This document shows, one piece after another, positions 4,599-33,929 of a stretch of 33,929 nt of DNA. The stretch is from Catajapyx aquilonaris. Its lineage: Eukaryota. A model generated the notes under the pieces. The model saw only the letters and a list, made by a program, of their open reading frames with translations, ran no database searches and was not told where the DNA came from. The position numbers and the translations under genes are program-made. Each line of letters starts with the position of its first letter. Position 1 is the stretch's first letter. The stretch lies in NCBI GenBank assembly GCA_000934665.2, contig JYFJ02004203.1:1-33929 (forward strand). Direction: 5' to 3'.

Positions 4599-6098
4599 AT
4601 GACGAGAATCCTTCTGGTTCTGGCCCTGGCCGCGGCTGTCCATGCCGGCAGCGTGGTAAATCTGCCATACACCAACCCGGCTGGCGTCACCTACATCAAT
4701 GGCGGACCAGCCGGTTACGCTGTCGACACTGGCGCCCACTTTGACCACGGCGTCGCAGCAGCCCCCGCCGGTCCCGTCCTGGATGGCCACGCATACGCTG
4801 GTCACGCTGTGGACGGTCACGCATACGCTGGGCACGCTCTGGCCGGTCATGGCTATGCTGGACACGGCCTGGCCGGACACGGCTATGCTGGACACGGCTA
4901 TGCTGGACACGGTCACGCTCACTTGGCAGCGTACGCCCCCGCACCAGTCATCGGTAAGGTTCCAGCTGTCGCTCATGTCCCGGCCGTATCTAAAGTTCCC
5001 GCTGTAGCCGATGTCCCTGTGACAACCCTACACGCCACTCCTGGCGTCGTTGGGAAATTTGTGGATGTTGCTCATCCTGCTGTGTCCAAGCGTCGCTTCC
5101 AGGTTCGTAGGCCTGCCATCCGTAAGGAGTACTACGATATCGAGCAGACCATCCGTCTGCGTCCTGTCGGTTCCACCCTGTTGGAGCTGGAGACCCCGAG
5201 GGTCAAGACCCAGCTGGGTCCCGCAGTCATCGCCCCATCTGACCACGTCCCTGCAGGTCCCGTGGTGGCTGCTGGTGTTGGCCGCCGTGTGGTCGACGGA
5301 CCAGTCCATCTCCGAGGCACCCTGTTCGACGCCCCAGCCCATATCGACGCCCCAGAGCACATCGAGTACCCACAGCACGGAGGAGTCTTCGAGGGCGTCG
5401 AGGTGAACGCCGCTGACTTCCGCGCCGTATCCCCATCCCCATCGCCATTCCCACAGTTCTCAACCCCAGCTCCATCCTTCCCATCCCCATCTCCTCTGCC
5501 CCAGGCCCAATCCAGGGGCGCACCACCCCAGCAGCGCCAGCAGCAGCCCCAGCAGGCACGCGGACCCGCCCCTCGCGGACCAGCCCCACAGGGACCCCCA
5601 GAGCACGCCCGCAGCCTGCCCATCCACGAGTCCGCCCATGCCCAGGAGTACCTCCATGGCATTCTGGAGAGCCCACCAGGTCCAGTCCTGGCTGTTGAGG
5701 GCGGCCCAGGGCCTGTGACCAGCGCCCGTGTGCTTGAGGCATTCGGGAGCACCGCCAACCTGCCTCTTCCAGGTGAGGAGCGTATGACCTCCCGTCGTAT
5801 TGCCCTTCTCCGTAACGTCGAGACCGTCCAGGATGTCGAGGTCAACGAGCCTGCTACCAAGCTGCACCGCCTGCATGTCGAGCAGCCCGTGGTGTACAAG
5901 ACCGCCCATACCAGCATCGCCCGTGTGCCAACCCACATCCCAGTGGCCACCTCCGTTCCAGTGGCCACCAAGGTGCCCGCAGTCGTCGGCCATGCCTACC
6001 CAGCCCATGCCCATGCCCATCTGGAGCCAGCCTACGCTGCACACGGGCATGCGCATGGTGCTTACCATGGTGCATACCAGGGTGCTTACAACTATTAA
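4599..6098 (+). CDS. Secreted low-complexity cuticle-associated protein (499 aa, no R&R chitin-binding consensus seen)
   Basis: GC3-rich 499-aa ORF. Signal peptide MTRILLVLALAAAVHA; GH(A/G)YA repeats; VPAV repeats; Pro/Gln-rich core; His/Ala/Tyr C-terminus. TATA box upstream and AATAAA downstream. Composition is typical of arthropod cuticular proteins. Confidence 0.85.
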   Translation: MTRILLVLALAAAVHAGSVVNLPYTNPAGVTYINGGPAGYAVDTGAHFDHGVAAAPAGPVLDGHAYAGHAVDGHAYAGHALAGHGYAGHGLAGHGYAGHGYAGHGHAHLAAYAPAPVIGKVPAVAHVPAVSKVPAVADVPVTTLHATPGVVGKFVDVAHPAVSKRRFQVRRPAIRKEYYDIEQTIRLRPVGSTLLELETPRVKTQLGPAVIAPSDHVPAGPVVAAGVGRRVVDGPVHLRGTLFDAPAHIDAPEHIEYPQHGGVFEGVEVNAADFRAVSPSPSPFPQFSTPAPSFPSPSPLPQAQSRGAPPQQRQQQPQQARGPAPRGPAPQGPPEHARSLPIHESAHAQEYLHGILESPPGPVLAVEGGPGPVTSARVLEAFGSTANLPLPGEERMTSRRIALLRNVETVQDVEVNEPATKLHRLHVEQPVVYKTAHTSIARVPTHIPVATSVPVATKVPAVVGHAYPAHAHAHLEPAYAAHGHAHGAYHGAYQGAYNY

Positions 6099-6192
6099 AC
6101 CGGACCCAGTAGGGTCGACAACTCCTCCGATTTACCCTTTCTCTCCACGATTGAAACTTACAGTTTCAATCATGGCGAAGAAAGGCTGTCTA

Positions 6193-6213
6193 AATAAAGA
6201 CTGGTCAAATAAA
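6193..6213 (+). terminator. Polyadenylation signals of the cuticle-like gene
   Basis: AATAAA at 6193-6198 and 6208-6213, about 100 nt after the stop, followed by T/GT-rich sequence. Confidence 0.6.
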
Positions 6214-7996
6214 GAGAACGGGACGCTTGTGGGGATTTTTTGTAGTAAAATTTTTGTAATATATGATCTTTAAAAAAAAATTATGAGATGTTGAAGCAAA
6301 ACGGAAGAGCGGATGTCAAATGTGCTTTCTTTTTTCAAGTTGTATTTATTTATTCCCCCATGTTATCATACTTGACCTTATTTTCCTCTGAGATCCAACA
6401 ATGGTTTTCAGCTCAGACCAAGATGATATTACTGTGACTTAGCTCCCGGGCCAAACAATTACACTACGTAATTGTTTGGCAGGCGAGCTATGATCCCCCC
6501 CAAATATGTCAATTTTTTCACAATGCTAATTTGTCTTCTATCGAAACAGGAATTTCATGTGCGAAATCCTCAACAGTGCTTAGAAAATGAAGAAAAAAAT
6601 AATAAATAAAAAAAGCGCTGTTACCAACAATGAGGGGTGCGTTTTAATTTGCCCTCAAACCGGAATCAGCTTTAAATCCCTTCCCCAAACATTCACCAAC
6701 CTTGGATCACACTATAATTTACAACGTACTAAATACGCCACCTTCACTCAATGTAAGAGGTCAGAATTAAACATGGGATAAAACTATATCATAGATAATG
6801 TTTTTTAGATGCATATCTAACTAACCGATCCCTGACCTCAAAAAAAATATGACAAATGCCTACAGGCTATATAATTTTTTTTATATATAGAAAGGGTACA
6901 CAATCTGTGATGTCTGTTTCTGCAAAAGTCCTCGATAGATATCGCCATTTTTTTCGCAACACACACGTAAATTTCGATATGCGTTTAATTGCTCCGACAA
7001 TGAAATCGTGCAAGTAGTCATCTAGTGAAAGGCATATCGGAATGAGCTGGAATTTTTTTTTCAAGAGTTGTTATCAATCATACACACCTGGCCTTATAAG
7101 GTATGCGCAAGTCACGGTCTATTTTTGCAAGTGGGCGAGTAATAAAATGTGCAGAATTCGCATCAACAATTGGTTAAATTGTTGAGTGCGTTGAAGTAGT
7201 AATAAATGCGTATGCAAATAAATAAAGTATGCAAAATTTAACATTGTTGAAATTTTGCTGATTTCATAACATTTTATTCCTGTTGGGATCACCATGTACT
7301 TTTTTTTTTAAATCGCCTTTCACTCCATGACTTATCTAGGAATCGAGTGATTCGGGTACAAAACGAAGAGAAGGGACCTGGAGTAACATTGTTTCCCATA
7401 AAAACTAGGGAGCAGCACCATGAATCAACCAGTGCTGCGCCTCAGCTTTTGCCCAATATGTCACTTGGACCATTAAACAGGCTTCTGTGTTCCTCCAAAA
7501 CCGGTAAGGTTGCAATTGGGATAGAACCTTTATGTGGAGCCAATATCTAATACCTGATCTTGAAGCCAACACCTACTTTTTAAGGTAGTTGCCAATCAGT
7601 TTGTGGGACACTGCGCCAAGATCATTCTTGATTGGAGGCAATAATAATGCTGCAATAAAACTGCTGCATTTTTATTAGTCTTATACACAGCTGATCGTAA
7701 TCTAAATGTGGGTGTACGATTTTGAATGTATGATGTTGGCATGTGTTGGATAGAAAGTAAACTCTTGGGAAGTATCCAGGAAGGACACAAGGTCAGGGAG
7801 TATCCTACGAGGTATGCAACACACAGGTTTTAAATTAATCATTTTCGCATTGTTATTGTGAGTGTAAATGTTGTTAAAGCTATTGTTATGTTGACTTGCT
7901 TTGGACGTGAGCTTGTAGCGAAACATACTTTGGCAATACCAATCCTTCGAGTTACTGGTTGAAAGACTGACATACCAGGCGAAATGCACATAATGT

Positions 7997-10684
7997 TTAA
8001 ATAAGCAGTTTTCTCCTGGTTAACCTCAACGCAATGAAGATCAGCAGCATGATCACCACTGTCCAAACAATGGTGGTGACAAACCCGAGCCAGACTCTCC
8101 AGTGAGTGATGTCCCATCCTCTGATCATCATGCTTCTGGTTGCCTCCGTGGCCCACATTGTTGGAGACAACCAGCAAAACCACTTCATGTGCCTGAATGG
8201 CGTTGCTTCCAAAGGCCAGAGAGTACCGCTTGTCAGAATCACTGGAAATAGTGTCCCCAGCATGAGGGCCGCCAGAGCTAACATGTCTGGAGTAAAGATG
8301 GACATCAACAGTCCTAAGGCCAGTCCCATCGAGCCTTGCAAGGAGACCAGAAGAAAGACCAATGGAAAGGTTGATAATACTGGAGGATTCAGGTAGAAGT
8401 AGAGGGTCAGCATCATGGCCAACACCTGGAGAACCAGAGTTGTGTGCATGGACAGCATACTGGCAGTCAGTGTCTCCCAGGCTGAAATTCCTGCAACAAT
8501 CAAAATTCACATTTTAGCATGGAATGAAAGAGATGTCCAATAATAATGCATCAGATGTATGTTAATCTCACCTGAAACTTCTACTCGACTGGATATTCCG
8601 GTTGTTCGATCCAGCATGGTGTAAACTGCTGCAGTCACTGTGCTGAATCCAACGCTCAAGCTGAATATGAACAAAAGTACAAGAGTGTCAGCAGCATATG
8701 TGCTAACCGAACAACTTACTGGATTAATATTCCTGGTGACATAAATTCGCTGAATTTGGGAGCGTCGGAGCCAAACACTGCATCACCGAACTGAAAGCAT
8801 TAATTTTAAAATGTTTATTCTTCAACAATCTGTACTAAACATCGTAATTTGTAATTAAGCAGTACGTTACCTCAATGGGTGGTCTGGATAAGTAATGGTT
8901 GATATTACATGTTTCTAGCATTTGCTGGATGAATTCACCAAACTTGATATTCACCATTCTCTGCACCATGTATCCAATTTGTTGATCTAAATAAGCGCAA
9001 CAATAAAAATAATAGGATAGTCCCAATTATTAATTTTTGTTGCAGTATACTTACTTGACATATCCATTTTAAATCTTACAACCGCATTATTCATGGTGTC
9101 ATTTTCACCAACAATGTTATTGATGAATCTGTTTCCCACAGCCTCTGAAAAAGTTACTGGAAACGTGATGACACCCCATGCCTCTCCTTTCATCACAGCA
9201 GTCGACGCACACGTCTCGTCATCGTATGGCACCTGTCCAAAATAAATATCTTAATTATATTCATGATGGCATATATAATTTCAAATATTATTACTAGTGT
9301 AATCATCTTGTGATCCAGAGTCTGAAGAAACCTGCAGCTGAAGTTGAGGAACTGACAATCGTTGTGCATTTGACACACCGGATCCTGAGGCCACTCGTGG
9401 TTCACCACGGCCATCTTAAGTCCCATTGGATCACCCCCAATCACGATACAGAAAATAAGTATGATTAATGGAGGAATCACGAAGAACGACGCGAAAAGAC
9501 TGGAACAACAAGAACCGTGGACGTATGAACATTACTTTTATGTATTTAAAAAAAAGTACTTACGGCCACATACGACGCTGTCGGACGAGTATCTTGATGA
9601 CAAGGGCCAATATGTGGTCGAAATAATATGAGCCACTGATTTGCTGCCAATTTGGCAGTGCCAAATTTTTCGCAGGAACATAGATTTTTGGTGAAATAAG
9701 ATCGTTTGCAGATGCCTGGTCCTCTTTGAGACAAAGGTGCAGGAAAACTTCTTCCAAGTTGTGTGAACCATGTTTTGAAACTATGGAAGAGGGCATATCT
9801 TGAGCTAAGAGGCTACCATTCCTCATAATGCCGACCATGTCAGCGTGTCGAGCTTCTTCGATGTAATGTGTTGTTAGAAGAACTGTACAGTTTCCTTTCG
9901 ATGTCAGTTGACGAAGATGACTCCACACCCTTTGAAATCAAGAAGAGTTTCAGCATTTCCGGATATTTTTGGTAAAAAAAATTATTAGAACGTACTAACA
10001 TTTGCCTGAGGAGAGGGTCAACTCCAACAGTGGGTTCATCCAACACAAGCAGTTCTGGTCCATGAAGAAGAGCCAAGGCGAAAGACACACGACGTTGTTG
10101 TCCTCCACTGTGTGTTTCATAATTTAGCCCACATCATCAGACATATGCATAAAATGTGTCTCACCTGAGGGTATGAATTAATCTACTTCTGTGTGGCAGC
10201 TGTAGAAAAGTGGTCAAGAAGGTTAATCGACATTTGATGGCATCCAGGGTCATTCTGTGAACGCGACCATAAAAGTGAATAGTTTCGTCTATCGAGAACT
10301 CCATGTTCAGCGATAACTCCTGTGGCATATAGCCTAATCTTGATCCAGGTACTCCAAGCCCTGGAGTTCTTGGAGGATGACCAAAAATATGAACGGCACC
10401 TGAATCCAGTTCGCTAATGCCAACAATGCACGACAAGATTGTTGTCTTTCCGCTGCCACTAGCTCCCAATAAAGCGTATCTAAAAAATATTTAAAAATTA
10501 TGACGTCATATTTTTTTTTAAATATATAATTTTGTGGTGCCACTTACATGCTTCCCTTTTTGACAGTCATTCTGTAGTTATGCAGCACATGAGAAGCCTT
10601 CATGCCTCTTCCGTATGACTTAAATGCATTTGAAACTACTATTGCATCTGGTGAATCGGGTATTTCAACCATAGATGGGTCCAT
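7997..10684 (-). CDS. ABCH: ABC transporter subfamily H (NBD-TMD half transporter), 692 aa, 10 coding exons
   Basis: Exons 10684-10548, 10479-10165, 10107-10000, 9929-9564, 9499-9295, 9232-9055, 8986-8871, 8790-8720, 8660-8572, 8490-7997; all GT-AG and phase-consistent (2079 nt). Walker [11 protein letters not shown]-loop GYMPQE, signature [10 protein letters not shown], Walker B/D-loop [14 protein letters not shown]-loop TTHYIEEA. Large extracellular loop ([21 protein letters not shown]) then an ABC2-type membrane domain ([11 protein letters not shown]). Confidence 0.92.
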
Positions 10685-10691
10685 TTTTCAC

Positions 10692-11364
10692 CTGTTGAGA
10701 TTGTAAGTGCGACAATGGATAAATAGCTGTTCTGACTTACCCAGGATTGAAACCAACTTGAAGAATCCAACCCTTCACTTGACAGCAGTAAACACACTGT
10801 GAGGCAACCTGGATAAACACGAAAATAGAAAAACAACACACCAGGCCTTCCTACCAAAGAGCATGATAACTATATTTAATCTCTTTGCTCCTTATCATCC
10901 GACGTCTTTAATTACACACTCAAGAATCACGCGAGGAACTTACATTTTCCCACTTCTGCTTATGAATCTGGTTGCATAATTTCACAACGAAAAGAAAACA
11001 ACTCATTAAAATTTTATTCCCTAACAAAATAATATTGCCTCATTGTTGAAGGGTCATGCAGTGTGCACTTGATATTTTAAAACAGCAATGTCAAGAATAA
11101 TCACAATCATTACGCCCAGATATATTTTGGACGAATTAAGTAATATATTCTCACCTGGATCAGAGTGTTGTTTGGCACATCTTTAGAGTCAGTTGCACTA
11201 ACACAATATTATAGACTTCCTCGTTGGATCAGATTATTATGATTGCAAAACATTCGTTGCCTGCTTTGTTTTGTTCCAAAATCCCGCCTACTTTTTACAC
11301 GCACATTAGAGTACTCTGTACAAAAAGGGGGGGAGGGGGGATTTAACACTGGTTTATTTATATA
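10692..11364 (-). promoter_or_regulatory. Probable spliced 5' leader of ABCH with candidate TATA
   Basis: Acceptor at 10692-10693; candidate non-coding exons 10741-10808 (strong pyrimidine tract, GTAAGT donor) and 10944-11020; CAG|GTGAGA donor at 11154; TATATAAA-like sequence near 11357-11364. Confidence 0.4.
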
Positions 11365-12718
11365 ATCACTGACGTGATTTCTTGCTAACAAAATATGATT
11401 TCATAAACTTCACAAAATGTAGGGAGACCAAATGATAAAATTGAATAATAATAATAATAGATGATGATAGTGATGATGATGATGATGTGCACTGCAGTTC
11501 TCCCTGGAATTGTGGCGGCATCATATAAAAAATGTGTGTTAAATTCCCCTAAGAACCCAAGGTCGCAATATCTTAATATACACCTCTACGTGTAACTTCA
11601 TTTTTTACGCATGAAAAAAGTAATGTCCAAGAGAACTCTGGAGTGTTAAAAAAACGGGCAGTGTACAGTTATAGCCATAACGTCTTCAGCTGTGGCCTTG
11701 GTCAGTTGCACTCACTTTATGCACAGAACTAGTCTGTAAAATTAATAATCTGACGGACATACGCTGAAAAAGGAAATACTAGTCATACAAAAATATGCAG
11801 TACAAAAAACAATACACAAGTAATCATTAAATAAAATGTAACTGTTTGGGTCTTAATAAGTGGGGTGTCAAATTGATTCAATGGGTCGTAACCCTGAGCA
11901 TTGCAATGTGACCCTTTTGAATCTAGATAAAATTGTCCCCTTTCCGGAGTCTAAACTCGATTCGTGATTCGAAAAATTATCAGTCGTTTTGTGTACGGTA
12001 CTCGATCGGGGGGAATGTTGGACCTGAGCTTCCGAGTGCCCTGCAGGTAAGTTCTTTATTGAATTATTCATAATTAATAATTTTGATGGCAGGAGTTTTG
12101 ATTCGATGGAAAAAAGTTATGGATTGCCTCACATGAAGTTCACTTACTTGAGATCCGATTGCAGGAAGACCTTTTTTTTTGTTCCAGATGCATAGTTATC
12201 CCTACTGTGCTAATTTACCCTGAGGTGTTCAGTACTTGACCTCGGATTAAATTGATTCAAAATAGTTATTTCCCAATGACGATTGTAATCATTCTACTTT
12301 TTTATTATGGTCAATTTTTTGACTTCTTTTTTGCCTTTTGTCAATTTTTTTGGACTTTTATTGAAAACTTGAGACCAAAAAGGAAGAATGGCATATTATA
12401 GATTTTTGAATATGACATGTTCATACGAAAGTGTTTTTTTTGTGCATGTTGTGTGTTTGCAATTTTTCGACATTCCGAAAAAGCAGTTAGGTTGGATAAT
12501 ATTATCAGGTGAATTTGAATAATTAGGATGGAACATGATGTATAAGAATTGAGTAAGGCACAAATATTTCCTTGAATGACATAAATAGGCCTAATATTCG
12601 TATACGTATTTTTCGCTATAAAATTTGTAAATGTTTATTCATAATGCTTATAATTATCTGCATAGATCAGATAGTTGCAGAAAACTAAAAATGAAAATTT
12701 CGGACGCCGGTTTACGGA

Positions 12719-12752
12719 CCCCCCCCCCCCCCCANNNNNCCCCCCCCCCCCC
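12719..12752. other. Poly-C tract containing ambiguous bases or an assembly gap (N at 12735-12739)
   Basis: Five N flanked by C homopolymers. Confidence 0.95.
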
Positions 12753-12904
12753 AGCCTATGGACTTAACCTGTCTTCCGATTCCTGGGTTCAATTGAATTT
12801 TAGATTTTTTTGATAGAGTGAAAAGAGTTAATGGCAGTATTAATCTATACAAGAATTTATGAATTTTTACAGGCGAGTTCGAATCCATTTATTTTAAAGA
12901 ATGG

Positions 12905-13249
12905 GGGGAGGTGTGGTGGCCGTGATGGTAACGTCACGGCTTGCTGAGTGAAAGGCCCCAGGTTCGATCCCCGCCTGGGGAACTTTCCTTTCACCTGCGT
13001 CAGGAGGGTCTCTGACCTGCACCAAGGAGGTGTCTGGCAACCTAACCCCTGCGGGACAGCACATGACCCGTTTTCAGACGTGCACTTGCACCATGTTCCC
13101 TCCCCGAAAATCCCTATCCTTTCCTCTTGTCCTTTCATCCTTGCACAGGTGTTAGAAGAAAATAATAAGAAAATTGAAGGAAAATGGTGGTAATCCACCC
13201 CCCTATAAGGGCCCACGGCCCTAGCACGGGGTAACGTTAAAAAAATATA
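12905..13249 (+). mobile_element. tRNA-derived SINE with 15-bp target-site duplication
   Basis: Pol III A box TGGCCGTGATGG (12917-12928), B box GGTTCGATCCC (12961-12971), A-rich tail. Perfect TSD TATTTTAAAGAATGG at 12890-12904 and 13250-13264. Confidence 0.9.
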
Positions 13250-13345
13250 TATTTTAAAGAATGGCGATTAAAATAAAATGAAACAATATTCACCTTTCCT
13301 GCATATAGGAAAGGTTTTGTGTGTCTGTTGCATAATTTAGCTTAC

Positions 13346-13436
13346 CTTATCCTCGATTTGAGACGCAGTGTGGGGAACAGATTCTGACGCCTCTTCGTGC
13401 AAAATAATATCTCGCCCCAAAGTCACTTCTTTTATA
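13346..13436 (-). promoter_or_regulatory. Orphan copy of the cis-prenyltransferase TATA promoter and non-coding first exon
   Basis: TATAAAA (13436-13430), a leader clearly homologous to 16339-16433 and 20247-20339, and an intact AAG|GTAAGC donor at 13345. No prenyltransferase CDS follows. Confidence 0.75.
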
Positions 13437-14166
13437 TGCTTGTATAAAAGAGGAATATTTCTGACACATGCCGTTTTTTTCTGGTTGTGTAAACATTTTT
13501 TATAATTAATTCTGATTTTTTACTGTTCTTGATGCAATTGCTTTGGAGTAATAATTAATTACGACACGAAAGTAGACCTTCTGCCTGCCTATCAGCTGTT
13601 ATTATTATTCATATTACACTATCACATACCCAACGTCACCCACGTTACATGACTCATAGGACGTAACAAAATATAAAATAATTTAAATTTAATTCGTAAT
13701 TTAATTTTTAATGCCCTGTGCACTGTAAAGGCAAAGGTGATTTTGTAACGTGCACTTTTCGTAATAATTTACTCCTGCAAAAAATGACTCAGGGTTAATG
13801 GTTAGATAACTTACGCACGTAATAATACACAAGGTAATATTTTCCATGATTGTAATTAAAATAATATACATTTTCGTTGAGTCTTGTTATACTAGATAAA
13901 ATATATCGTAAGCACCATAACTCTTACACTATGGGAACAGACAGATTCATGACAAATAATTTCTCAATATACACAGGTAATTCATCGGATTATTTTATTT
14001 CCGAAATATTTGCTTCATGAAGTTATTTTACAAAAATGGCTATTATTATGAAGCCTACCATTTCTGGTCACCTTGATATTCCCCTTACCCAATAGCTACC
14101 AACATAATATCGATTATTATAATAAAACTGACTCTCGAAAGGCCCAGGAGAGAAAATAAATATTAT

Positions 14167-15578
14167 TTATTGTTGGCCTGCTCCTCTGAGTGTCTCACGC
14201 CGAACACATTGTTCATTCGACAGTTGCTTCACATACTGAACATAATTCCTATCTATTGTCTGCAAGAAGTTCTTGATCCTCGATCCTTTTCCTCCATCTG
14301 ATTTCTCTCTTTGCAGTTCCTTCTCTGCTTTTATCAGATTTTCCTGCAATAAAATAGAATTCGAAGTTTTGAAGAGTTGTTACAGTGTAACATATTTCAT
14401 GAAATAGTCTTGATAACAGATATAGTGTTACGGCCACTGTAGCATTTGATTGTATCGTTGAGAAGAGCATTGAGTACAGTAATATTGGAAATATTACATA
14501 CCTTCAAATGGTGGGCATGACGCTGGTAAAGTAAGCCGCTCCAAATAAAGTTCCAGAATCCGTATTCAGGCCAGGTTACCTTTTCGAAGCAAATGTAACT
14601 GTACGAACTCTGCAACATGTACATTATTAATTTTAACAAAACGAATATCACAAAGCTATAATAATGAAGCCCCTGCGCAAAGTATGAACTGGAGACTGAC
14701 CTGCCAGAGCATGAAGTCCGAAAACCTCATTTCCCCTGATGTCCTTATGATCATGTCCACAGGAGGAAGGTCCCTGGTCTGGAGACACTTCTCCATCAGT
14801 CCCTCTGACACGTCCTCTGGTTGGATCAGACCGTTGCCCACTCCGTCCATCAGGTGGTGAATTGCAGAGGTCATGTCGTCACGGGCTGGAACAGAAAAGG
14901 AAAATGACAAAAGTGTGTTAGATAGTCTGAACATGATGAACTCTCGATTATCCAACATCCAGTGGACATGATACTCACAGGTGTAAGGACATGCCATATT
15001 TAGGACGTGCTTGGTGCAATGGGCCGTCTTGTCCATGATCTGTCCAGCCAGGGTTTGCAGTTTTTGGGGAAATAGTTCCAGTCGACCCATCACGCGGATC
15101 TGGACACCTCTCTTGATGGGTGTCTCACTGAAATGAGCATGAACTTATGCAACGAGTTTATCCTCAAGGCAAATGCTCCTGAAGGTGGAGCTAGAGAGAA
15201 AAAGATGTTGAAGTTGTGTGTAAGGGCCTGGTTGTTGGTTGTGGTACGGGTGTAAGTGGAAAGAGAAAAGTTGGAAAGAAGATAGTGAAGTCATTATTAT
15301 CAACCACATACCATCTGCATAGTACACATTCAATATGCAGAATGTTACACACCCATCAATACCATACACAGAACGCACTAAAATTTATAAATAATGATGA
15401 GGACTTTGCACTCACATGTTGTCCAGGACTTCTTGAAAAGCTTCCTCAAACAAGGCCATCAGACCATCCACCTCTTCCTTTGGTCTCTTGAAATTCTCTA
15501 TGCTGAAAGCATACGCTGTTAAGGCGTACACTCCCATCTCTCTGCACCACTCCTGGGCCTCCATCATCTTCTTGTAGC

Positions 15579-15632
<54 letters not shown>

Positions 15633-15795
15633 TCATTTACCCTTGCCTGTGTCCCTCTATGGTCGGCAGTCCTTTGCTCTTGGCGTATCTTCTGTTTCCG
15701 TCCATTATGACCGCCACATGTCGAGGAACCTCTCCTTGCTTCACTATCTGGGTCATGAAGCGTTGCATCCAACTCATGTTGCTTTTATCTGCCAT
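14167..15795 (-). CDS. DHDDS: cis-prenyltransferase, DHDDS-like, copy A (311 aa, 6 coding exons)
   Basis: Exons 15795-15641, 15577-15416, 15127-14979, 14885-14701, 14609-14502, 14343-14167 (936 nt, phase-consistent). Motifs [53 protein letters not shown]. Confidence 0.92.
15581..15631. repeat. (AAT)17 microsatellite forming most of the first CDS intron of copy A
   Basis: 51 of the 63 nt of intron 15578-15640. Confidence 0.95.
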
Positions 15796-16338
15796 TGTTG
15801 AAGATATTTTTCCTCCTGGCAACATTGGACGTGTAGCATGAGACTCTTATACGAGTAAAATATTTTCAATTCGCTCAGTTTGTATAATGAATAGAAAAGG
15901 CAATTTACATATTCTGGCTGGTAAACTCCTTGATGTTAGTTTATAGCTGTAATTTTACTGCATTGTTTCAAAGGGTAACAAAAGTCACTTCGAAGGAGCT
16001 GAAGCTTATTATCCATTGTAACCTGCAATGTATTGCTGGTATTTTTTATTAAATCTGATTCCCCTGCAGTTAAAACAATAGACTGCGCAACCTCTTCTCT
16101 AGGTCCCTCTTGAAGTTAAATTAGAATTTTCAGCTGATTAAAGGCGTTTATGGCAGTGTGAATCTAGAAAATTCACAAGCATCTGATTTTCACAGCTGAG
16201 CCTGAATCCAATAATATTGTTTTCGAGATTAGAACATCGATATTAAAGGGAACATCTATGGATTAGAGAATTAACAATAATAATCTCTGCTGCATAAAAT
16301 AAAAGGCATAACGATACAATTATTGCATAAATGCCTAC

Positions 16339-16433
16339 CTGATCCTCGATTTGAGATACAGTTTGCTGTCCAAGTTCTGATACCGCCTAGTGCAAAATGA
16401 TAATTATTTCGCACTAAAGTCGCGTCTTTTATA
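16339..16433 (-). promoter_or_regulatory. TATA promoter and non-coding first exon of copy A
   Basis: TATAAAA 16433-16427, Inr-like TCATTT near 16400, CAG|GTAGGC donor at 16338. The module is repeated at 13346 and 20247. Confidence 0.7.
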
Positions 16434-17458
16434 TGCTTGGTTAGAAAAATATTGTTTATGACGTATAACTGCCCTTCTTTTACTTGCGTTTTGCATAATC
16501 AAAGTTTTTTAAAACTGCTAATTGCTTTGCTTTCATTTACAATGCACACAATCTGCTTAGAAACACTATAATTATGGACGACAGCTTGTATTTTCCTATT
16601 TCTTTGTAGCATGCTGCAATATTATTTGCCAACTCCATGTACAGAGGCCGCTTTATTTTTCTAGTATATTTTCTCCCACGCCGTAATACGTAGACTATAA
16701 TGTTACGAGGCACTTCGATCGCTAGTTAGCACGGCAAATGGCATCAAAAATAGTGTCTGGTAATACAGTATTATTGAACTATTGAATTTTAAAAAAATGA
16801 ATTCGTATGTACAGAATGATGATAGTGACTTTTTCTGGATATTTTCAGCTGAATATCACCAATGCAACGGACAGACGGACAGTGAATTAGTATTACGCAG
16901 TCCTGCATGTCTTTGAGTGACACATGTTTCACATACATCAAGAATCTTCTAAATATTACGAAAAAATGTTATATTTCATCCTGTAAAGTGAAAGTGAACG
17001 AGGGAAAAAATTTGATATCACACCACTTTGCTTGCATAATATTTGTCAAAAAAAAATTCCACTGAAAACCAACCAAACGGATTTAATACGCCTAACCCTA
17101 TTCCGAGAAAATGCGACTTTTTAAGTTACAAATTGTGCAACTGAAAATTTGTAATTTTGTGATCATGCCACAATCAAGAGCTTAGGTACCGTACATGTCA
17201 TGATTGACGGAATTCAACAAAATCAGGCTCCTTAACCTTTTGACCTATTGCCTGATTTGAAGATAGCCGACTTTGGCTTGGTGTAGGTTTTGAACTGAGA
17301 ATTTCCTGAAGTGCCGGTAGATAAATTGCACTGTACTGGCACTGTAACACAGATTATTATCCGTGCCAATGAATGCACGAGTGTCGCCGAATAATAAAAA
17401 GACACGGATAATCGATAAAAGGCCGTAGATACAGTAAAAATGAGCTATTCACTAATAT

Positions 17459-17560
17459 AAATGCTTTTGGCCACTTTATCCTGGTCTTGCAGCAACCCTT
17501 CACATACGGGTCTGTGCGAAGGGTTGCTTCAAGACCAGGATAAAGTGGTCAAAAGTATTT
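17459..17560. repeat. Long inverted repeat (arms about 48 bp) or fold-back hairpin
   Basis: AAATGCTTTTGGCCACTTTATCCTGGTCTTGCAGCAACCCTTC... pairs with ...GAAGGGTTGCTTCAAGACCAGGATAAAGTGGTCAAAAGTATTT. Confidence 0.9.
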
Positions 17561-17993
17561 GAACCCGATAGTACGTAATAATACACAAAGAAATACCCTG
17601 ATATTTTCCATGATTGTAATGAAAATAATATACATTTTCGCCGAGTCTTGTTATACTTTAAGATAAAATCTATCGTAAGCACCATAACTCCTACACTATG
17701 GTGACATGTAGGTTCATGAAAAATAATTTATAATTATACACGGGTAATAAATCTGATTATTTTATTTCCGAAATATTTACTTCAAGACGTTATTTTACAA
17801 ATGGCTATTATTATGAAGCCTACCATTTCTGGTCACCTCGATATTCCCCTTACCCAATAGCAACCAACATAATATCGGTTATTATAATAAAACTTACTCT
17901 CGAAAGGCCCAGGAGAGAAAATAAATATTATTTATTGTTGGCCTGCTCCCCTGAGTGCCTGACGCTGAACACATTGTTCATTCGACAGTTGCT

Positions 17994-18110
17994 TCACATA
18001 TACTGAACATAATTCCTATTCATTGTCTGCAAGAAGCTCTTGATCCTCGATACTTTTCCTCCTTCTGATTTCTCTAGTTGCAGTTTTTCATCTGCTCTTG
18101 TCAGATATTC
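17994..18110 (-). pseudogene. Extra terminal exon of cis-prenyltransferase (remnant or alternative last exon) with a 2-nt insertion giving an early stop
   Basis: Intact TTACAG| acceptor; encodes EYLTRADEKLQLEKSEGGKVSRIKSFLQTMNRNYVQYM*. Downstream 17600-17990 is near-identical to the 3' region of copy A (13838-14230). Confidence 0.75.
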
Positions 18111-18389
18111 CTGTAATAAAATAGAATGTGTTCGACAAAGAATACAATAGGAATCACACATTCATGTGCAGGGGCCAAAAAACAAGTTCAATTTTTGTTC
18201 CCTAGTGTAAGCAGAAATTTATTATTACATAAGTTACTGTACAAATGGCTAGAAGCATTTCGATATTTCCACCATACCAAACAATCATATTTAATGTTAT
18301 TATTAAACTAAATACCTGTCGAATTTAAGTTCCTTTATTGTACACCTTCTCTCTTATGTGCCTTATACTGTTATACACAACACATTTGT

Positions 18390-20258
18390 TCAGTTTGACA
18401 ATTGCTTCACATGCTGAACGTAATTCCTGTCCATAGTATGCAAGAAGGTCTTGATCCTCGTTCCTTTCCCTTCTTCTGATTTTTCTTTCTGCAGTTCCTG
18501 GTCTGCTTTTGTCAGATTATCCTGCAAGTAAATAAAGTACTTCTATTATGAAATGTTTGTTGTCCCTTGAAATTTTTCAATAGTTTATTAGATCAGAAAG
18601 ACAGATTGATGCACGGGATAGTTAAAATTATTAAATAATTTTTTTAAATTTTATTTGTTTTATGAAACTGTCTCTATCTACAACCACTACAGGTGTAGTG
18701 CTTCGGCCACGGGCCCCTGTATGTATCGTTGAGAAGTGTGTAGAAAATATGAATATTGTAAATATTTCCTATACAGTGTGCATATACCATCAAATGGTGG
18801 GCATGGCGCTGGTAGAGTAAGCTGCTCCCAAGAAAGTTCCAGAATCCATATTCAGGCCAGGTTATCTTTTCAAAGCAAATGTAACTGTACGAACTCTGCA
18901 ACAAAACACAAAGGTCAGGAAACTTAATTCAGGTGACACTGCACAAGACTAACAAAATGGAGACCTGACCTGCCAGAGCATGAAGTCGGAGAATCTCATT
19001 TCTCCTGATGTCCTAACGAGCATGTCCACAGGAGGAAGGTTCCTGGTCTGGAGACACTTCTCCATCAGTCCCTCTGACACGTCCTCTGGTTCGATCAGAC
19101 CGTTGCCCACTCCGTCCATTAGGTGGTGAATTGCGGAGGTCATGTCGTCACGGGCTGGAACAGAAAAGGAAAACGACAAAAAATGTGTGATAGTATGAGC
19201 ATGATGAACTATAACTATACAGTCTTATTCCCAGTGGACATTATACTCGCAAGTGTAAGGAGCTGCAAGAGTAAGGACGTGCTTGGTGCAATGAGCCGTC
19301 TTGTCCATGATTTGTCCAGCCAGGGTTTGCAGTTTTTGGGGGAATAGTTCCAGTCGACCCATCACGCGGATCTGGACACCTCTTTTGATCCACGTCTCAC
19401 TGAAATGATTTTATGAAATAATGCAACAAACTATGATAAAGCGGTAACACCCTTGAAGCTTCATAATTCTAGGATCTGAATCCTATTCGTGTATTCAAGA
19501 CATGTCACATGACTTGTGAAGCGTCAATGTCAGATCAATATTAAAGTGGAGAGTGTTGCACTCGCATATTATCCAGGACATCTTGAAATGCTTCCTCGAA
19601 CAAGTCCATTAGACCATCCACCTCTTCCTTTGACCTCTTGAAGTTCTCTATGCTGAAAGCATATGCTGTTAAGGCGTAGATTCCCATCTCTCTGCACCAC
19701 TCCTGGACCTCCAGCATCTTCCTATGACTGCGATTAAACAAAAACAAAAGTTTCAACCATATGGTTCAACATCACCTCAGAGTTATTCTGTCCACTTGTT
19801 GAATCGAACCCAAATTGAGTCTCACTATTTCCATTCCCTATTATTCCACCATTCATCGTGCAAAGTAATCCATCACTTACCCCTGTTTGTGACCCTCTAT
19901 GACCGGCAGCCCTTTGCCTTTGGCGTATCTTCTGTTTCCGTCCATTATGACCGCCACATGTCGAGGAACATCTCCTTGCTTCACTATTTGGATCATGAAG
20001 CGCTGCATCCAACTCAAGTTGCTTTTTTCAGCAATGTCTAACTCCCTCTTTAAGTGAAAACCAGAATTTTCAGCTTATTACACTACTTGATAGAAATAAT
20101 GAATCTAGAAAAGTAACTAAAATCGAATTTTCTCATGTGATTCTAAATCAATATTTCCCTTAGAGAATGGATATTAGTAAAGGATCCAATATTCACCTGT
20201 GATGCATATATAAAAGGTGCTATGATGTAATTACGTAAATGCTTACCTGATCTTCCAT
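18390..20258 (-). CDS. DHDDS: cis-prenyltransferase, DHDDS-like, copy B (about 304 aa; two GC donors; start uncertain)
   Basis: Exons 20258-20247 (inferred new ATG), 20047-19881, 19727-19566, 19399-19251, 19154-18970, 18895-18788, 18521-18390. Internal exon sizes match the paralogs (162/149/185/108) and catalytic motifs are intact. Donors at 19565 and 19250 are GCGAGT. Fallback start is the ATG at 20008. Confidence 0.75.
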
Positions 20259-20339
20259 TTGAGACACTGTTTGCAAACCAAGTTCTGATGATTCCTAGTG
20301 CAAAATAATATCTAGCCCCAAAGTCACATCCCTTATATA
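20247..20339 (-). promoter_or_regulatory. TATA promoter and first exon of copy B
   Basis: TATATAA 20339-20333; leader homologous to that of copy A; CAG|GTAAGC donor at 20246. Confidence 0.7.
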
Positions 20340-21686
20340 TAATTTGGAGAATATGTGTTCATTACTGACGTACATGGCAATCATTTCTTTTCTTATAGGT
20401 GCGCTTTTTGTTACTTTCTACGTTTTTTTCCGGGTTTGATCCATCAACTCTGCTTATGTGAGTAATTATCATGACGTGGTAGAGAAACGAAACCCTTTTT
20501 CCTTATTCATGTTTGTGCTTCGGTATTATTTGCTGACATCACTAACTGAAATGTACTTTATTCTCGTATAGTACCGAAACACCTCATTCATTTACTGCAG
20601 CTGCTTTATTTTTTTCCAATATAAATTATTCCACTCATAATATAATGTTACGAGGATATTTGCTCTAATAATGTGGATTTCTACTTACCTATTTAGAGCA
20701 AATACCAGTGCCATTTTTGATAGCATCTAAAATGCCTGTATGTCTTTGAGTGACACGTGTTTCACAAAAATCAAGCGGATAATAATTAATCTTCTATATA
20801 TCACGTAATGAATGTTCTCTAGTTCTCTAGTTTTCTAGTGTGGAAAGTAACAACATTGCCATTTGATGCTCTATTGTGCAATTTCTACTGTTCAATTCCG
20901 CATTAATGAAGATTTGTACGTGACGAATAATGGAAAACTGCAATTGGTGTCTTTTAACGGTTAGCTTATTACATAACTGCAGGCACGATTCGTGATAACA
21001 AAAAATTATGGGGATATCAACAGATGGATGATATTCCCTTTGTTATTACAGTAAGTTATTAAATAAAAACCTTCCCACGTTACCGCTTGTAAGAGAGAAA
21101 AACATAATTTGCTAGAACTCCTATTTCTGAATCTTTTATTAACAGATGTACGTGAGGGGAGAGAGGAAAGGTACAAGGAAAACTCATCCGTCTTTTGTAA
21201 TGCTGAAGCAGGCCTAATTATCTTTTTTATATAAGATTATATCCGTCAGAGTGAGTCTCATTTTATCATTCCGCTGCCTCAGACGCGGAGAGTGACGTAG
21301 CTATTTTAGTTACGGATAATATCAGTACCATGTTTACAACTAATTTTTGCCAACTTGCTAATTCCATAAATTAATGGTTTGCATTCAATTAGTATAATAA
21401 CTGTAATTGTATGAGAAAGAGGACTGCCGGACAGGTGGGAATTAATTAATTAATGCTTACACTTCTGCTGGTAAAAATGTGCCGTTTAATAATATCCAAC
21501 AATCAAACCTCACTTATTTAATTGGATTACTCGTACTGTACATAATTATGCAACACCCTTAACACAATATGACGAAGTGCAACTCTACGGTACATCAAGT
21601 GGTCAATAACCGCAAGGGCCGGAGGCACAGTATTTAAAACCCCTATAGTAAATTATTTAATGCGACATGGAAATAACTGCTTTGTG

Positions 21687-22973
21687 CTAATTGCAGGATA
21701 ATTTTCCCACGTACTGAATATAACTTTTGTCCAGCGCCTGCAAAAAGTTATTTATTCTTGTTCCTCTTCCAGCTGTAGATTGTTCTCTTTGCAATTCCTC
21801 TCCCGCTTTTGTCAGACTTTTCTGCAATAATAGCAGTGCATATCATCAATGACATTCAATTATGAATCGATCATACACTGCGTATACAGTACCTTCAAAT
21901 AATGGGCATGTCGCTGGAAGAGTAAGCCGCTCCCAATAAAGTTCCAGAATCCGTATTCAGGCCAGGTTATCTTTTCAAAGCAAATGTAACTGTACGAACT
22001 CTGCAAAAATTATTATAATAAAATGAATATTGCAGATCTAATAATGTACTCTAAATATGAAGTACAAATGTGGAGACTGACCTGCCAGAGCATGAAGTCG
22101 GAGAATCTCATTTCTCCTGAAGTTCTAATTATCATGTCCACAGGAGGAAGGTCCCTGGTCTGGAGACACTTCTCCATCAGTCCCTCTGACACGTCCTCTG
22201 GTTCGATCAGACCTTTGCCCACTCCGTCCATCAGGTGGTGAATTGCGGAGGTCATGTCGTCACGGGCTGGACGAAAATGACAAGTGTGTTAGATAGTCGC
22301 TGAACATGATGAACTCTCGATTATTCAACAGCCAGTGGACATTATACTCACATGTGTAAGGAGCTGCCAAAGTGAAAACGTGCTTGGTGCAATGAGCCGT
22401 TTGCTCCATTATATTCCCAATTAAGACTTGCAGTTTCCTTGGGAATAGTTCCAGTCGACCCATCACGCGTATTTGAGTATCTCTCTTGATCCACGTGTCA
22501 CTGTAAGTCCACGAATTTAAAACATTAAATCATTTTTTTTGTTATTTTACTATACAACATATTCTGTCGCTATTGAACTCACATATCATCAGCAATATTT
22601 TGAAATGCTTCCTCGAACAAGGCCATTAGACCATCCACCTCTTCCTTTGTCCTCTTGAAGTTCTCTATGCTGAAAGCATACGCTGTTAGGGCGTAGATTC
22701 CCATCTCTCTGCACCACTCCTGGACCTCCAACATCTTCTTATATCTGAAATTTTATTACATATAATAACAGACAGTCCCAATCATTTACTTACAATTAGA
22801 TTATTATGAGATACGTACCCCTGCCTGTGTCCCTGTATGACCGGCAGCCCTTTGCTCTTGGCGTATCTTCTGTTTCCGTCCATTATGACAGCCACATGTC
22901 GAGGTAAATCTCCTTGTTTGATTATCTGGATCATGAAGCGCTGCATCCAAGTAATGTTGTTCTCTTCAGCCAT
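21687..22973 (-). CDS. DHDDS: cis-prenyltransferase, DHDDS-like, copy C (297 aa, 6 coding exons)
   Basis: Exons 22973-22819, 22744-22583, 22500-22352, 22266-22082, 22000-21893, 21821-21687 (894 nt); all GT-AG with all motifs intact. Confidence 0.92.
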
Positions 22974-23242
22974 CGTTGTTGATTGTCTGATCGCCTGCTT
23001 TTGTTGGAAAGGATTCCCAAATATATTTTTAAATAAACGCGGCAAACAATAGCATGTGAATTCTGCTGATAAATTAATTTACATGTGAATCACACAGTGT
23101 CGTTCACACTTCATTATGATTCGGGTTGCTGCCTTCTGAATGTATCGCTTATGCAAATCAACCTTGCGTAGATCATGTTTGTCCGTGAATGCTATACTTA
23201 CACAATATGCATCAGCTTCATTGTTACCATGATTTCACTTAC

Positions 23243-23323
23243 CCGAGCTTGATAATAAGCGATGTCGTACTGGGACTTCAGGAGACGAATAATTTATTAC
23301 CATCCAAACAGGACTGCTTTATA
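23243..23323 (-). promoter_or_regulatory. Candidate TATA promoter and non-coding first exon of copy C
   Basis: TATAAA 23323-23318, Inr-like TTATTC about 30 nt downstream, CGG|GTAAGT donor at 23242. Not visibly homologous to the A/B module. Confidence 0.55.
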
Positions 23324-24667
23324 GGCTAGGCTGACCTTCTGCTTCCAAAAGGTGCTACAGTCTGCGGTTGCTCAATTTATATCAAATTAATGTAATTAAA
23401 ATTATTATATAATTTCCCGTGTTTCGAAGAACTAAGCAAGAAGCACATGATTCGTGATCGTGATGGGGAAAATAAACCAACAGTCCCTTACGTCTGCGTC
23501 GGTCCAGGGTTGGTTTATATCACGTGAATTTGCAAATGACGTTGAACACTACGTGCATTTAATTACGCCACATGATTCACAATATTGTGTAATGCGCTAG
23601 CTATAACTCGGAGTGTAAATTGCATGTTGACACTGATTATAATGCAAACATCATGATGCTATTGTCCTCTCAGTCGTGAGTTTCATTAGTAGGTTCATTA
23701 TAGGTTTATTGCCTTGATTATCCAGGGTAGTCAACCTATTCTTGCTCTGAACGTAGTCACTGCGGCTTTCATTGGGTTACATTGGCCATGCTCAAGGCTA
23801 TGAGAAGCCTGCTTTTTTTTGAAACGAATGAGTGAGGTGCAAACTGAGATGATGAAGAAAAGGTGAAGACTGCCTCACTCGGAGAGCAATAACTAGATAA
23901 GGAATGCAGAATTCTATAAAGAATATTGTGAGTCAACTAAAGATCGGTGTCTGAACAATTGATTTTACTATTTACGACACTGCATCAGAAATGGATATGT
24001 TTAGACCGGATAAGAAATTTCTCCATTCCTTCCATTGATCCTGAATTCAACTCATCTCCTCTCTTGCAGACGCCAATGGTTCAAAATTAATGTTATTTCA
24101 TCTTTACATACGGTACGTGGTAATTGCAGGCACATCACACGTTCTGACAACAAAATTAGTGGTTTGTGGTGAGGTGCGAGTGATTCATACTTACATAAGG
24201 CCTGCACGAAGCTTTCGTTGCCTGGGAAAAATGGGTTTTCCTCTTGGAAGGGAGAGAAAAACATCCTGCATGCTCATCAGATTTGCAATTACCAGTTCGA
24301 GATTATTGACATATCCGTCACTCCAAAGCGTTTACAGACAATTCCTTATAAATTCAAGCATTGCATTGTGGGACTTTGTTTTTGAAGGATTATTTTGTCA
24401 GGCATGCAACTTTTCCTGAATATTCCAAAAACTTTTAAAATTATCCCAAATGATAACGTCCTTCACTTAGGGTCACATCTTCCCAGCAAACCAACTTTCT
24501 ACAGACTTTAAAGTAATTCGTCAGCATCGCAATAACTGAAAGTTGGACGAATAAAAATCATTTCAAAATTAATTGTCCGTTTCCATTCATTATATTAAAA
24601 AGGTAGGGTCCCAACGATACACTCCATCACCCTCTATGAACTGATATTCCCTATTGGCCGCAATATT

Positions 24668-26189
24668 TTATGGTAAATTACTGGACAGGCTCGCCACATA
24701 CTGGGCGTACTTTCTGTCCAGAGTATGCAAGAAACTACTAATCCTGCTTCCCTTGTCCGCTTCTAATCGTTCTCTCTGCAGTTCTTGCCCAGCTTTCATC
24801 AGACGATCCTGTAACAGGATTGTGTCAATATTCAGTGATATCGAATAACATTTCGATATAAGCTTATTATTTTGTAATACTATCAACCATGTGAAGTTCG
24901 GTTGAATGATGCAATCTTATAGGAGATAACGTAAATTGGTTAAACCGAAAGAGGACATACTGTACCATACCTTCAAATGGTGTGCGTGACGTTGAAAGAG
25001 CAAGATGCTTCCAAGGAAGTTCCAGAATCCATATTCAGGCCATGTTACTTGCTCAAAGCAAATGTAGCTGTAGGAGCTCTGCAAAATAGTAGTTACATGA
25101 CTATAGTGACCTAAAGCTGCAGCAGCACTTGGGACTGACCTGCCAGAGCATGAAGTCCGAGAACCTCATTTCCCCTGAAGTCCTAACGAGCATGTCCACA
25201 GGAGGAAGGTCCCTGGTCTGGAGACACTTCTCCATCAGTCCCTCTGACACGTCCTCTGGTTCGATCAGACCTTTGCCCACTCCTTCCATCAGCTGGTGAA
25301 TTGCAGAGGTCATGTCGTCACGGGCTGCATATATGAGAAAGGAAATATGTAGCATACTGCATACAGACATGTAGCCAGTATAGGAACCAATATTTTCTGA
25401 TCGACCATTTTCAGAGTGCATTTGACCGTGGGTGAGATGACCATCCATAACCACATTTACTGTGCGAATACAGCACTCGCAGAAGCCGTCAGCAGAGAGC
25501 GTAATATTTTGCACGCGCTTCGTGTATGGTTGGGTGCAAACCTGCCAGGATGTGCTTCACCACACTTGCTGTGTATAACAAAGTGGCTAATGGTGTAACT
25601 CACATGTGTAGGGAGCCGCCAGAGTAAGGACGTGCTTGGTGCAATGAGCCGTCTTCTCCATGATCTGTCCAGCCAGGGTTTGCAGTTTTTGGGGAAATAG
25701 TTCCAGTCGACCCATCACGCGGATCTGAGTACCCCTCTTGATCCAAGTGTCGCTGGAATAATTATTGAAAATATTGTTCACATTGAAGCCATGTTATCTG
25801 TGCATTGCCATTGACATATTATTCTTAGTACAAAATGTTCCTATTAAATTGCGATTTGTGGCACTAAACTGCTCATTATGTAGCAGTTTCTTTGGAACAG
25901 TTCCTTTTAGATGAGAATCTATAAGCTCGTTGATTATAAATTATTATGTCCAGCAGTGTGAAACAATTTCCTAGCTCTATTTTGCTTTCCAATCCTTCAA
26001 TTGTTTATCTCAGATATCACGACTCACATATCATCCACGATATCTTGAAACGCTTCCTCGAACAATGCCATCAGTCCATCCACCTCTTCCTTTGTCCTCT
26101 TGAAGTTCTCTATGCTGAAAGCATAGGCTGTTAGGGCGTACACTCCCATCTCTCTGCACCATTCCTGGGCCTCCAACATCTTCTTATGA

Positions 26190-26262
<73 letters not shown>

Positions 26263-26425
26263 TCATTTACCCTTCCCTGTGCCCATGAATGACCGGCAGC
26301 CCTTTGCTCCTGGCGTATCTTCTGTTTCCGTCCATAATGATAGCTACATGTCGCGGAACATCTCCTTGCTTCACTATCTGGATAAGAAAGCGCTGCATCC
26401 AACTCATGTTGCTCTCTTCAGCCAT
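24668..26425 (-). CDS. DHDDS: cis-prenyltransferase, DHDDS-like, copy D (299 aa, 6 coding exons)
   Basis: Exons 26425-26271, 26189-26028, 25752-25604, 25324-25140, 25078-24971, 24808-24668 (900 nt); all GT-AG with motifs intact ([38 protein letters not shown]). Confidence 0.92.
26193..26261. repeat. (AAT)23 microsatellite forming most of the first CDS intron of copy D
   Basis: 69 of the 81 nt of intron 26190-26270. Confidence 0.95.
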
Positions 26426-33103: not shown

Positions 33104-33732
33104 CGAACCCCCTCCTCCGACATGGTTGCCACTTTCCCGGCCACCACGTGGCGGAGTTGCCACATGGTGTCACATTTTCCACAAAATAATACTATCTTAT
33201 AACAAAACCTACTCGATGTGGTGTTCATTCCCTTTGGTGAAATAATTCATTGTGTTATGAAAGTTTCCTTTGTGAGAAATGTATGAAAAATGGAGAACAC
33301 GCCATTGAAAATTACAGGTTCACATTTCATAGTTAACTGCGCGTGCAAGATTGTGCGAAGAAAAATAGAAAAGAATTTTTTTGCATGGATAATAATTAAT
33401 CTGAGCACTGTACCCACCTACAGGTGAACAAATTGAATCATATGCATATACGTACTATTGTTGGTTCATGATAAATCATGCTGCGAGGGGAATTTTCGTA
33501 TATTTCTCAATTCGAGTTGCAAGTAGTGATATGTCACGAAAACCTGGCGGTAAAAATCATTATAGCTCATTAGTGCTGTGCGACTTACCGAGTGTTCTTA
33601 ATATGTCATAAATTCTACGGTATTAAATAAGGCATATAGACATACCGGCACAGAATAGTGGAATGCCATTTTGTAACTACGGTATAATGTAGAATAGACT
33701 GCCATTCTAAAATAATCTGGAAGAATCTGGAC

Positions 33733-33788
33733 CAGGGATGGAAAAAGAACCGCTTCCTCCCAAAGAAGCGGTTCTTTTTCCATCCCTG
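33733..33788. mobile_element. 56-bp hAT-like MITE (perfect 24-bp TIRs, 8-bp TSD)
   Basis: CAGGGATGGAAAAAGAACCGCTTC, 8-nt spacer, GAAGCGGTTCTTTTTCCATCCCTG; flanked by ATCTGGAC at 33725-33732 and 33789-33796. Confidence 0.85.
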
Positions 33789-33929
33789 ATCTGGACCTTA
33801 TATCATAAAGGGCGTTAGCATGCCCCATAGAAGGCCGAATTGCACCTATCATCTCGATATTATTGTGACAGGTGCTCTATGTATTCGACGTGATTCTTGT
33901 CAAGTTTCTCCAAAAAATTAGTTATTCGT

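Follow-up and report, generated by a model that had tools for sequence, protein, structure and literature searches.

The locus and its cis-prenyltransferase array

The locus analysed here is a stretch of 33,929 nt of Catajapyx aquilonaris (contig JYFJ02004203.1; hereafter the window), in which the feature under study, positions 4599..26425, contains four whole genes for cis-prenyltransferases resembling dehydrodolichyl diphosphate synthase (DHDDS), a gene for an ABCH-type half transporter and an open reading frame (ORF) for a cuticle-like secreted protein. The four cis-prenyltransferase genes, A to D, are co-oriented on the minus strand and have an identical six-exon plan, with exons of 155, 162, 149, 185 and 108 bases common to all of them, followed by the last exon. 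Copy A (24668..26425) would encode 299 aa, copy B (21687..22973) 297 aa, with its own TATA-like box at 23323, and copy D (14167..15795) 311 aa, with a TATA box at 16433 and a leader exon ending near 16340. Copy C (18390..20035) has 296 open codons, an ATT start and GC donors in introns 2 and 3, and is preceded by a TATA box at 20339 and a leader exon ending at 20247. The spliced reading frames are open in all four copies, and all 24 exons are without a stop or frameshift. Intron 1 of A (26190-26270) and of D (15578-15640) consists almost entirely of an (ATT)n repeat, directly followed in D by the acceptor AAG.

The Pfam family PF01255 matched copy A with 53.8 bits in exon 4 and 27.1 bits in exon 3 (cut-off 27), while exon 1, the query being a fragment, scored 23.7 bits and fell under the cut-off. 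Human DHDDS was the top PDB match for two of the three exon queries and the second for the remaining one, and an Atlas search with the copy D frame returned PF01255 clusters only. In human residue numbers, which were assigned via the vertebrate-like protein P0028 and are consistent with the PDB alignments, the catalytic-site residues D34, N36, R37, R38, H51, S79, N82, R85, R205, R211 and S213 are all present in each of the four copies. The gene models and these motifs bear out the statement of an earlier, sequence-only reading of this DNA that four co-oriented DHDDS-type genes with intact catalytic motifs lie upstream of an ABCH gene.

The same reading counted four copies, which is right for the whole genes, but the array is larger. 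The 3′ end of a further last exon with its stop codon lies at 33860..33929 on the minus strand, more divergent than A–D and running off the window, and it matches a profile of the four last exons with an E value of 5.2e-07, the next unrelated match having E 0.61. The array therefore has at least five copies and continues past the window end. Over exons 1–5, A–D are 87–91% identical in nucleotides and 85–88% in protein, and the remaining 9–13% nucleotide difference rules out assembly duplicates of one gene. More than 90% of the window's sequence words were found in four of the five listed sequencing runs.

Substitution patterns indicate that A–D are under purifying selection. The ratio of nonsynonymous to synonymous substitution rates (dN/dS) is 0.13–0.29 over exons 1–5 in all six pairs (Fisher p ≤ 4e-07), and 0.14–0.36 in the last exon, where dS is 0.45–2.2. 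Identity is distributed as a mosaic by exon, with third positions 84–92% alike in exon 4 for all pairs and 42–70% alike in the last exon, a pattern that points to old duplications combined with gene conversion.

Copy C departs from the other copies in having ATT where A, B and D have ATG and in having GC donors at two of its five introns (19565 and 19250), and with the ATG lost and these donors it may be impaired. It is also alone in having an ATG in the leader exon (20247-20258). Speculatively, translation could start at codon 10, or at the leader-exon ATG if this were put in frame by two minor acceptors. Behind C, on the minus strand at 17573..18127, the last exon and 3′ flank of D recur as an orphan duplicate with 89% identity and a frameshift near its end. 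The duplicate last exon itself (17930-18111) has a good acceptor, the right phase and 38 codons to a stop, and might be used by copy C as an alternative to its own last exon. At the end of the duplicated flank is an inverted repeat (17459-17560) with 46-base arms, 91% complementary, and a 10-base loop, possibly a small mobile element.

Such features could also be read as signs that A–D are birth-and-death duplicates that do little and are kept alike by gene conversion with a single working copy. The missing ATG of copy C, its three private silent against six private amino-acid changes, the two broken remnants within the array and the exon-wise mosaic identity would all fit this explanation. 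It is nevertheless highly improbable in our assessment, as even the last exon, with its dS of 0.45–2.2, has dN/dS values under 0.4, the exons of A–D are free of stops and frameshifts throughout, and both splice-site changes of copy C are of the tolerated GT-to-GC type.

Divergence from canonical DHDDS and the product channel

For comparison, a canonical set of 117 animal DHDDS proteins was assembled from 115 new matches among the best 120, plus P0059 and P0107; three matches were left out, one as a fused model, one as a long model and one as a duplicate paralogue. The underlying HMMER protein scan gave 2292 matches at E 0.001, of which the best 150 were listed, and among the top 25 listed per copy none was more than 49% identical to the full A–D models. 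The median identity of A–D to the canonical proteins is 43–46%, compared with 61% among the canonical proteins themselves (1500 sampled pairs). At the 95 positions that are at least 90% conserved in the canonical set, each of the copies A–D has 23–27 deviations, while canonical proteins have a median of two and a maximum of nine. In all four copies, 22 of these 95 sites are changed, among them W3, K42, F55, L62, A97, K100, L104, E107 and F154, whereas none of the 11 catalytic-site residues is changed. A word-based protein search with the exon 3–4 frame of copy D found nothing, and a metagenome scan with exon 4 gave 145 pattern matches, none of which was confirmed.

In two quick tree searches, the first of which used the 67 of 160 proteins that covered the core, A–D form one clade (SH-aLRT 99) on a stem of 0.96 or 0.54 changes per site, depending on the model. 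The clade is nested among animal DHDDS with a support of 96 in the first tree, while its placement in the second is weak and affected by long branches, so that the place of A–D among animal DHDDS is not resolved by these two trees. Horizontal transfer was rejected as an origin, since the genes have six exons and are nested among animal DHDDS (96 in one tree, weakly in the other).

By sequence, the nearest relatives of A–D are DHDDS proteins (human PDB 6W2L and 6Z1N; arthropod P0163 and P0022), with which they share the PF01255 fold and the catalytic residues. They have likewise kept the N-terminal membrane helix, the helix-3 insert length and the C-terminal helices, and none of the four has an RxG at the C-terminus. 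The membrane patch on the first helix reads M10, F13 and I17 in the copies for human W12, F15 and I19. Since the membrane helix, the helix-3 insert and the absence of RxG are given as features of the heteromeric class in the accessible part of bioRxiv 2020.06.03.132209, A–D have the make-up of DHDDS-type heteromeric catalytic subunits. They differ from DHDDS in being present in at least five copies in the window array, in their identity of 43–46% against about 61% among orthologues, in their TATA-box promoters, and in that W3 is lost and K42, F55, L62, A97, K100, E107, C148 and F154 are altered in all four. The plug and channel residues W3, F55 and F154 and the orthologue-level conservation that mark canonical DHDDS are thus absent from A–D.

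A set of changes common to the copies falls in the parts that form the product channel, namely helix 2, helix 3, strand D and the plug at the N-terminus. The product tunnel of human DHDDS is lined by helices 2 and 3, as passages of PMC7573591 describe, and according to parts of PMC9116609 the plug residue W3 closes the outlet against F55, F101 and V152, while F154 bends or holds the C20 product. W3 and F55 are invariant in all 117 canonical proteins and altered in all four copies. At position 97 the four copies have F, where 113 of the 117 canonical proteins have A and none has F, and an F at this position is also found in the plant short-chain enzymes PDB 8wu6, 7vpc and 8x35. Position 148 is His in the four copies and a small residue in at least 115 of the canonical proteins; human C148 corresponds to L137 of UPPS, the residue that closes the bacterial tunnel floor in the portion of PMC7573591 that treats it. 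F154 is replaced by A or C in A–D. Among eight residues named in the literature, six are changed, as against 16 of the 87 other sites (p 0.0017).

Given these patterns, it is reasonable to suggest, as a somewhat probable reading, that A–D are neofunctionalised DHDDS paralogues whose polyprenoids have an altered and probably shorter chain length. In this view, a DHDDS paralogue would have given up the housekeeping role and been multiplied in this lineage. Canonical housekeeping DHDDS makes C70–C120 products together with NUS1 and supports glycosylation. The enzymes would still join isopentenyl diphosphate (IPP) in cis onto an allylic primer, and they would presumably still need the partner NUS1/NgBR, because the C-terminal RxG is lacking and the membrane patch and the helix-3 insert length are kept. 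Their products could be of a different and most likely shorter length, because the channel has gained bulky residues, F for A97 in its wall and H for C148 in its floor, and has lost the plug (W3 and F55). The TATA-box promoters suggest that expression may be tissue-restricted, and the products could be specialised polyprenoids. As natural variants that alter the DHDDS plug, wall and floor together, A–D bear on how long-chain cis-prenyltransferases set product length. The claim of the sequence-only reading that the copies make non-dolichol Z-polyprenoids holds to the extent that the long-branched clade, the purifying selection and the shared channel substitutions fit non-dolichol or altered-length products, while its further claim that the neighbouring ABCH exports these products is not supported.

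Several points weigh against neofunctionalisation with shorter products. The change of F154 to A or C enlarges the pocket and the helix-3 insert length is unchanged, so that the direction of the length shift is uncertain, and human W3L still complements yeast, as reported in a section of PMC9116609. The comparison of six of eight with 16 of 87 sites was made post hoc, the list having already been seen, and counts K42, a residue outside the channel, among the eight. Divergent DHDDS duplicates of other arthropods alter many of the same sites, and this overlap may reflect convergence, or merely the first sites to drift. In broader family representatives, F at position 97 occurs in 8 of 107 and Y at position 55 in 15 of 76. 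Finally, the mosaic identity points to gene conversion, which is able to keep weak copies intact-looking.

The kept architecture also agrees with an alternative in which the copies are extra dolichol synthases that serve a high-demand tissue or stage and still produce bulk dolichol or dolichol-type carriers, of a somewhat different length, as with yeast Rer2 versus Srt1. The membrane patch, the helix-3 insert length, the C-terminal helices and the missing RxG all belong to a long-chain design, and in human DHDDS the deletion of the helix-3 insert or a mutation of the patch shifts length by only about three units, according to the accessible text of bioRxiv 2020.06.03.132209. However, this alternative is difficult to reconcile with the stem, on which 22 of the 95 conserved sites changed, many of them invariant in all 117 canonical proteins, and at least five copies would exceed the dosage need of a housekeeping step. 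We therefore regard extra dolichol synthesis as unlikely, though as the most serious competitor to neofunctionalisation.

Divergent prenyltransferase duplicates in other lineages

The view that DHDDS is normally a single-copy gene, from which the sequence-only reading started, needs qualifying, as divergent or tandem duplicates occur in several arthropods. The millipede Chamberlinius has two divergent DHDDS-like genes, CHUAL_006274 and CHUAL_006302, on one contig, and the ant Monomorium has a divergent copy on the same contig as the canonical gene. Gene models fusing tandem DHDDS copies were found in the beetle Nicrophorus and the sandfly Lutzomyia, and the beetle Holotrichia has a divergent paralogue. 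Among the proteins compared, P0006/P0158, P0015, P0161, P0081 and P0083 (millipede, two beetles, ant and sandfly) are duplicates altering overlapping channel sites, a recurrent pattern. These paralogues resemble the window copies in being extra and fast-evolving, in lying in some cases on one contig or in tandem, and in their overlapping changed sites, but a common clade with the window copies was not supported in the trees, where the branches are long. We know of no link to an ABCH gene for any of them. The same group of extra copies includes mealybug cisIDS2, 3 and 5, which are given as distant DHDDS-like genes, listed without an assay in the accessible part of PMC10960109.

In plants, short-chain cis-prenyltransferases such as neryl, nerylneryl and Z,Z-farnesyl diphosphate synthases (PDB 7vpc, 8wu6 and 5hxn) are duplicates recruited to specialised terpenoids, as is proposed here for the window copies, and they too have F at the position in helix 3 that corresponds to human A97. 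Unlike the window genes, which belong to the heteromeric DHDDS lineage, the plant enzymes are homodimeric (as described in passages of PMC9116609), plastid (judging by their PDB names) and of UPPS type.

Arthropod expansions of trans-type isoprenyl diphosphate synthases offer another comparison, as in the GGPPS-like genes of termites (PMC13143122, in the part available) and the FPPS-like genes of mealybugs, where a housekeeping prenyltransferase was duplicated, partly in tandem, and specialised terpenoids are made. Those enzymes are of trans type with tested activities, whereas the window genes have the unrelated cis fold and are known from sequence. In the accessible texts of PMC13143122 and PMC13638087, specialised arthropod terpenoids are traced to trans-type duplicates or to microbial-type terpene synthases, respectively. 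In our literature search, with most subscription journals outside its scope, no duplicated animal cis-prenyltransferase turned up for which a specialised product had been tested.

The neighbouring genes and the stretch between them

Downstream of the array and on the same strand, as the sequence-only reading had stated, lies the gene for an ABCH-type half transporter (7997..10684, minus strand), for which we obtained a model of 10 coding exons and 692 aa. All nine introns are of the GT-AG type and the spliced frame is open. The ATPase motifs (Walker A, Q-loop, signature, Walker B and H-loop) are intact, and Pfam recognised ABC_tran and ABC2_membrane in a single set in which the nucleotide-binding domain precedes the transmembrane domain. 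The best PDB matches are 8z01, 8yzp and 9ju6 (791–792 residues), which we take to be Tribolium ABCH-9C, with E values of 5e-28 for the exon of the nucleotide-binding domain and 2e-13 for the last exon, while ABCA3 matched the former exon with 2e-10. By these matches the gene is a member of the ABCH subfamily, closer to ABCH than to ABCG or ABCA. With the insect proteins Snu, Osy and ABCH-9C it has in common the reverse half-transporter design and the solved ABCH as its best PDB match. It differs from them in that, counted by eye in two exons, about 55 of 104 residues (53%) and about 38 of 122 residues (31%) are identical to the solved insect ABCH, so that the function of ABCH-9C or Snu is not simply transferable to it. 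A protein search with an ABCH exon gave two distant matches.

On the far side of the ABCH gene and converging on it, a single coding exon at 4599..6098 on the plus strand encodes a low-complexity protein of 499 aa (A 16%, P 12%, V 11%, G 10% and H 8%), with a signal peptide predicted by eye. It has no Pfam match at E 0.1 and the R&R chitin-binding domain was not found in it, which sets it apart from CPR cuticle proteins. Its look-alikes in the Atlas, with a score of 0.91 that has a low recognition value, are arthropod clusters partly named as cuticle proteins, a weak hint that it could be a cuticle protein of a non-R&R family. The convergent arrangement described in the sequence-only reading is therefore present, while the designation as cuticle type depends on composition and a weak look-alike, the ORF being without a Pfam match.

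Between copy D and the ABCH start lie 3.5 kb and a scaffold gap of 5 N in a G/C homopolymer run (12735..12739), which is probably a true join, so that the physical linkage of these non-homologous genes in the window runs across this gap. Within the interval, on the minus strand at 13238..13465, self-BLAST (E 5e-23 and 2e-16) detected an orphan copy of the C/D promoter, with a TATA box at 13436, a leader exon, a donor at about 13345 and some 100 intron bases. It faces the ABCH gene, 2.7 kb ahead of its ATG. The orphan, C and D promoters are 71–72% identical to one another (z above 20 against shuffles), and the orphan is as diverged from those of C and D as those two are from each other, with no sign of extra constraint. 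Most likely it is the remains of another copy, the alternative origin being ABCH's own promoter. The promoters of A and B gave no significant alignment with the C/D promoter.

This arrangement bears on the central proposal of the sequence-only reading, that the array makes surface polyprenoids which the adjoining ABCH exports. In a form extended by the present findings, the genes would be co-regulated, possibly through use by ABCH of the promoter and leader exon that it shares with C and D. The genes are on the same strand, a gene search between D and ABCH found none, and the orphan promoter facing ABCH has its TATA box and donor intact. Moreover, a splice acceptor lies ahead of the ABCH start exon, from which it follows that upstream leader exons exist. 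ABCH proteins move lipids to the cuticle, ABCH-9C carrying ceramide in a long tunnel (PMC12578276). The chance of an ABCH gene flanking one given array was roughly estimated at 0.05–0.2%, from two flanks, the 5–22 lineage-specific ABCH genes of non-insect arthropods given in part of PMC4587908 and an assumed number of about 20,000 genes. However, this estimate is post hoc, and many lipid-handling families would have been acceptable as a partner.

Other observations make the proposal improbable. The orphan promoter is only 71–72% identical to its relatives, without extra constraint, a tRNA-like element and the scaffold gap intervene between it and ABCH, and candidate leader exons that are closer to ABCH and would be its own were read by eye at about 10811-10740 and 11155. 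The window showed no gene for a reductase, a phosphatase or NUS1, and the ABCH is distant from the tested ABCH-9C type. The ubiquinone pathway is of the trans-prenyl type. Long terpenes of springtails, which the sequence-only reading had invoked as an analogy, are attributed to this route in the accessible part of PMC11321324, so that the analogy points away from the cis type. A metagenome scan with an ABCH exon found 22 ABC loci, none with a cis-prenyltransferase, but these loci were mostly bacterial or short and are uninformative for synteny.

The idea of three gene types forming a unit is thus left with adjacency as its support, and the ABCH and cuticle-like genes are most likely ordinary neighbours of the array. 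A more specific version is promoter capture: the duplicated promoter and leader exon would drive C, D and also ABCH, and the epidermal or gland cells that turn on synthesis would turn on export as well. We consider this decidedly improbable; if true, it would amount to a combined unit of biosynthesis and export in an animal, founded on the cis-prenyltransferase fold. Generally, a true ABCH link would make the locus a rare animal synthesis-and-export unit, and without it the locus would represent a lineage-specific enzyme expansion of a recurrent kind.

Two minor elements were also noted in the window. The tRNA-like element, at about 12915-12975 on the plus strand, has A-box and B-box-like motifs recognised by eye and a folding z of -1.9; ARAGORN called no tRNA gene and Rfam gave no match anywhere in the window, and the element is probably the head of a tRNA-derived repeat. 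A second fold-back, besides the inverted repeat behind copy C, lies at about 33730-33791.

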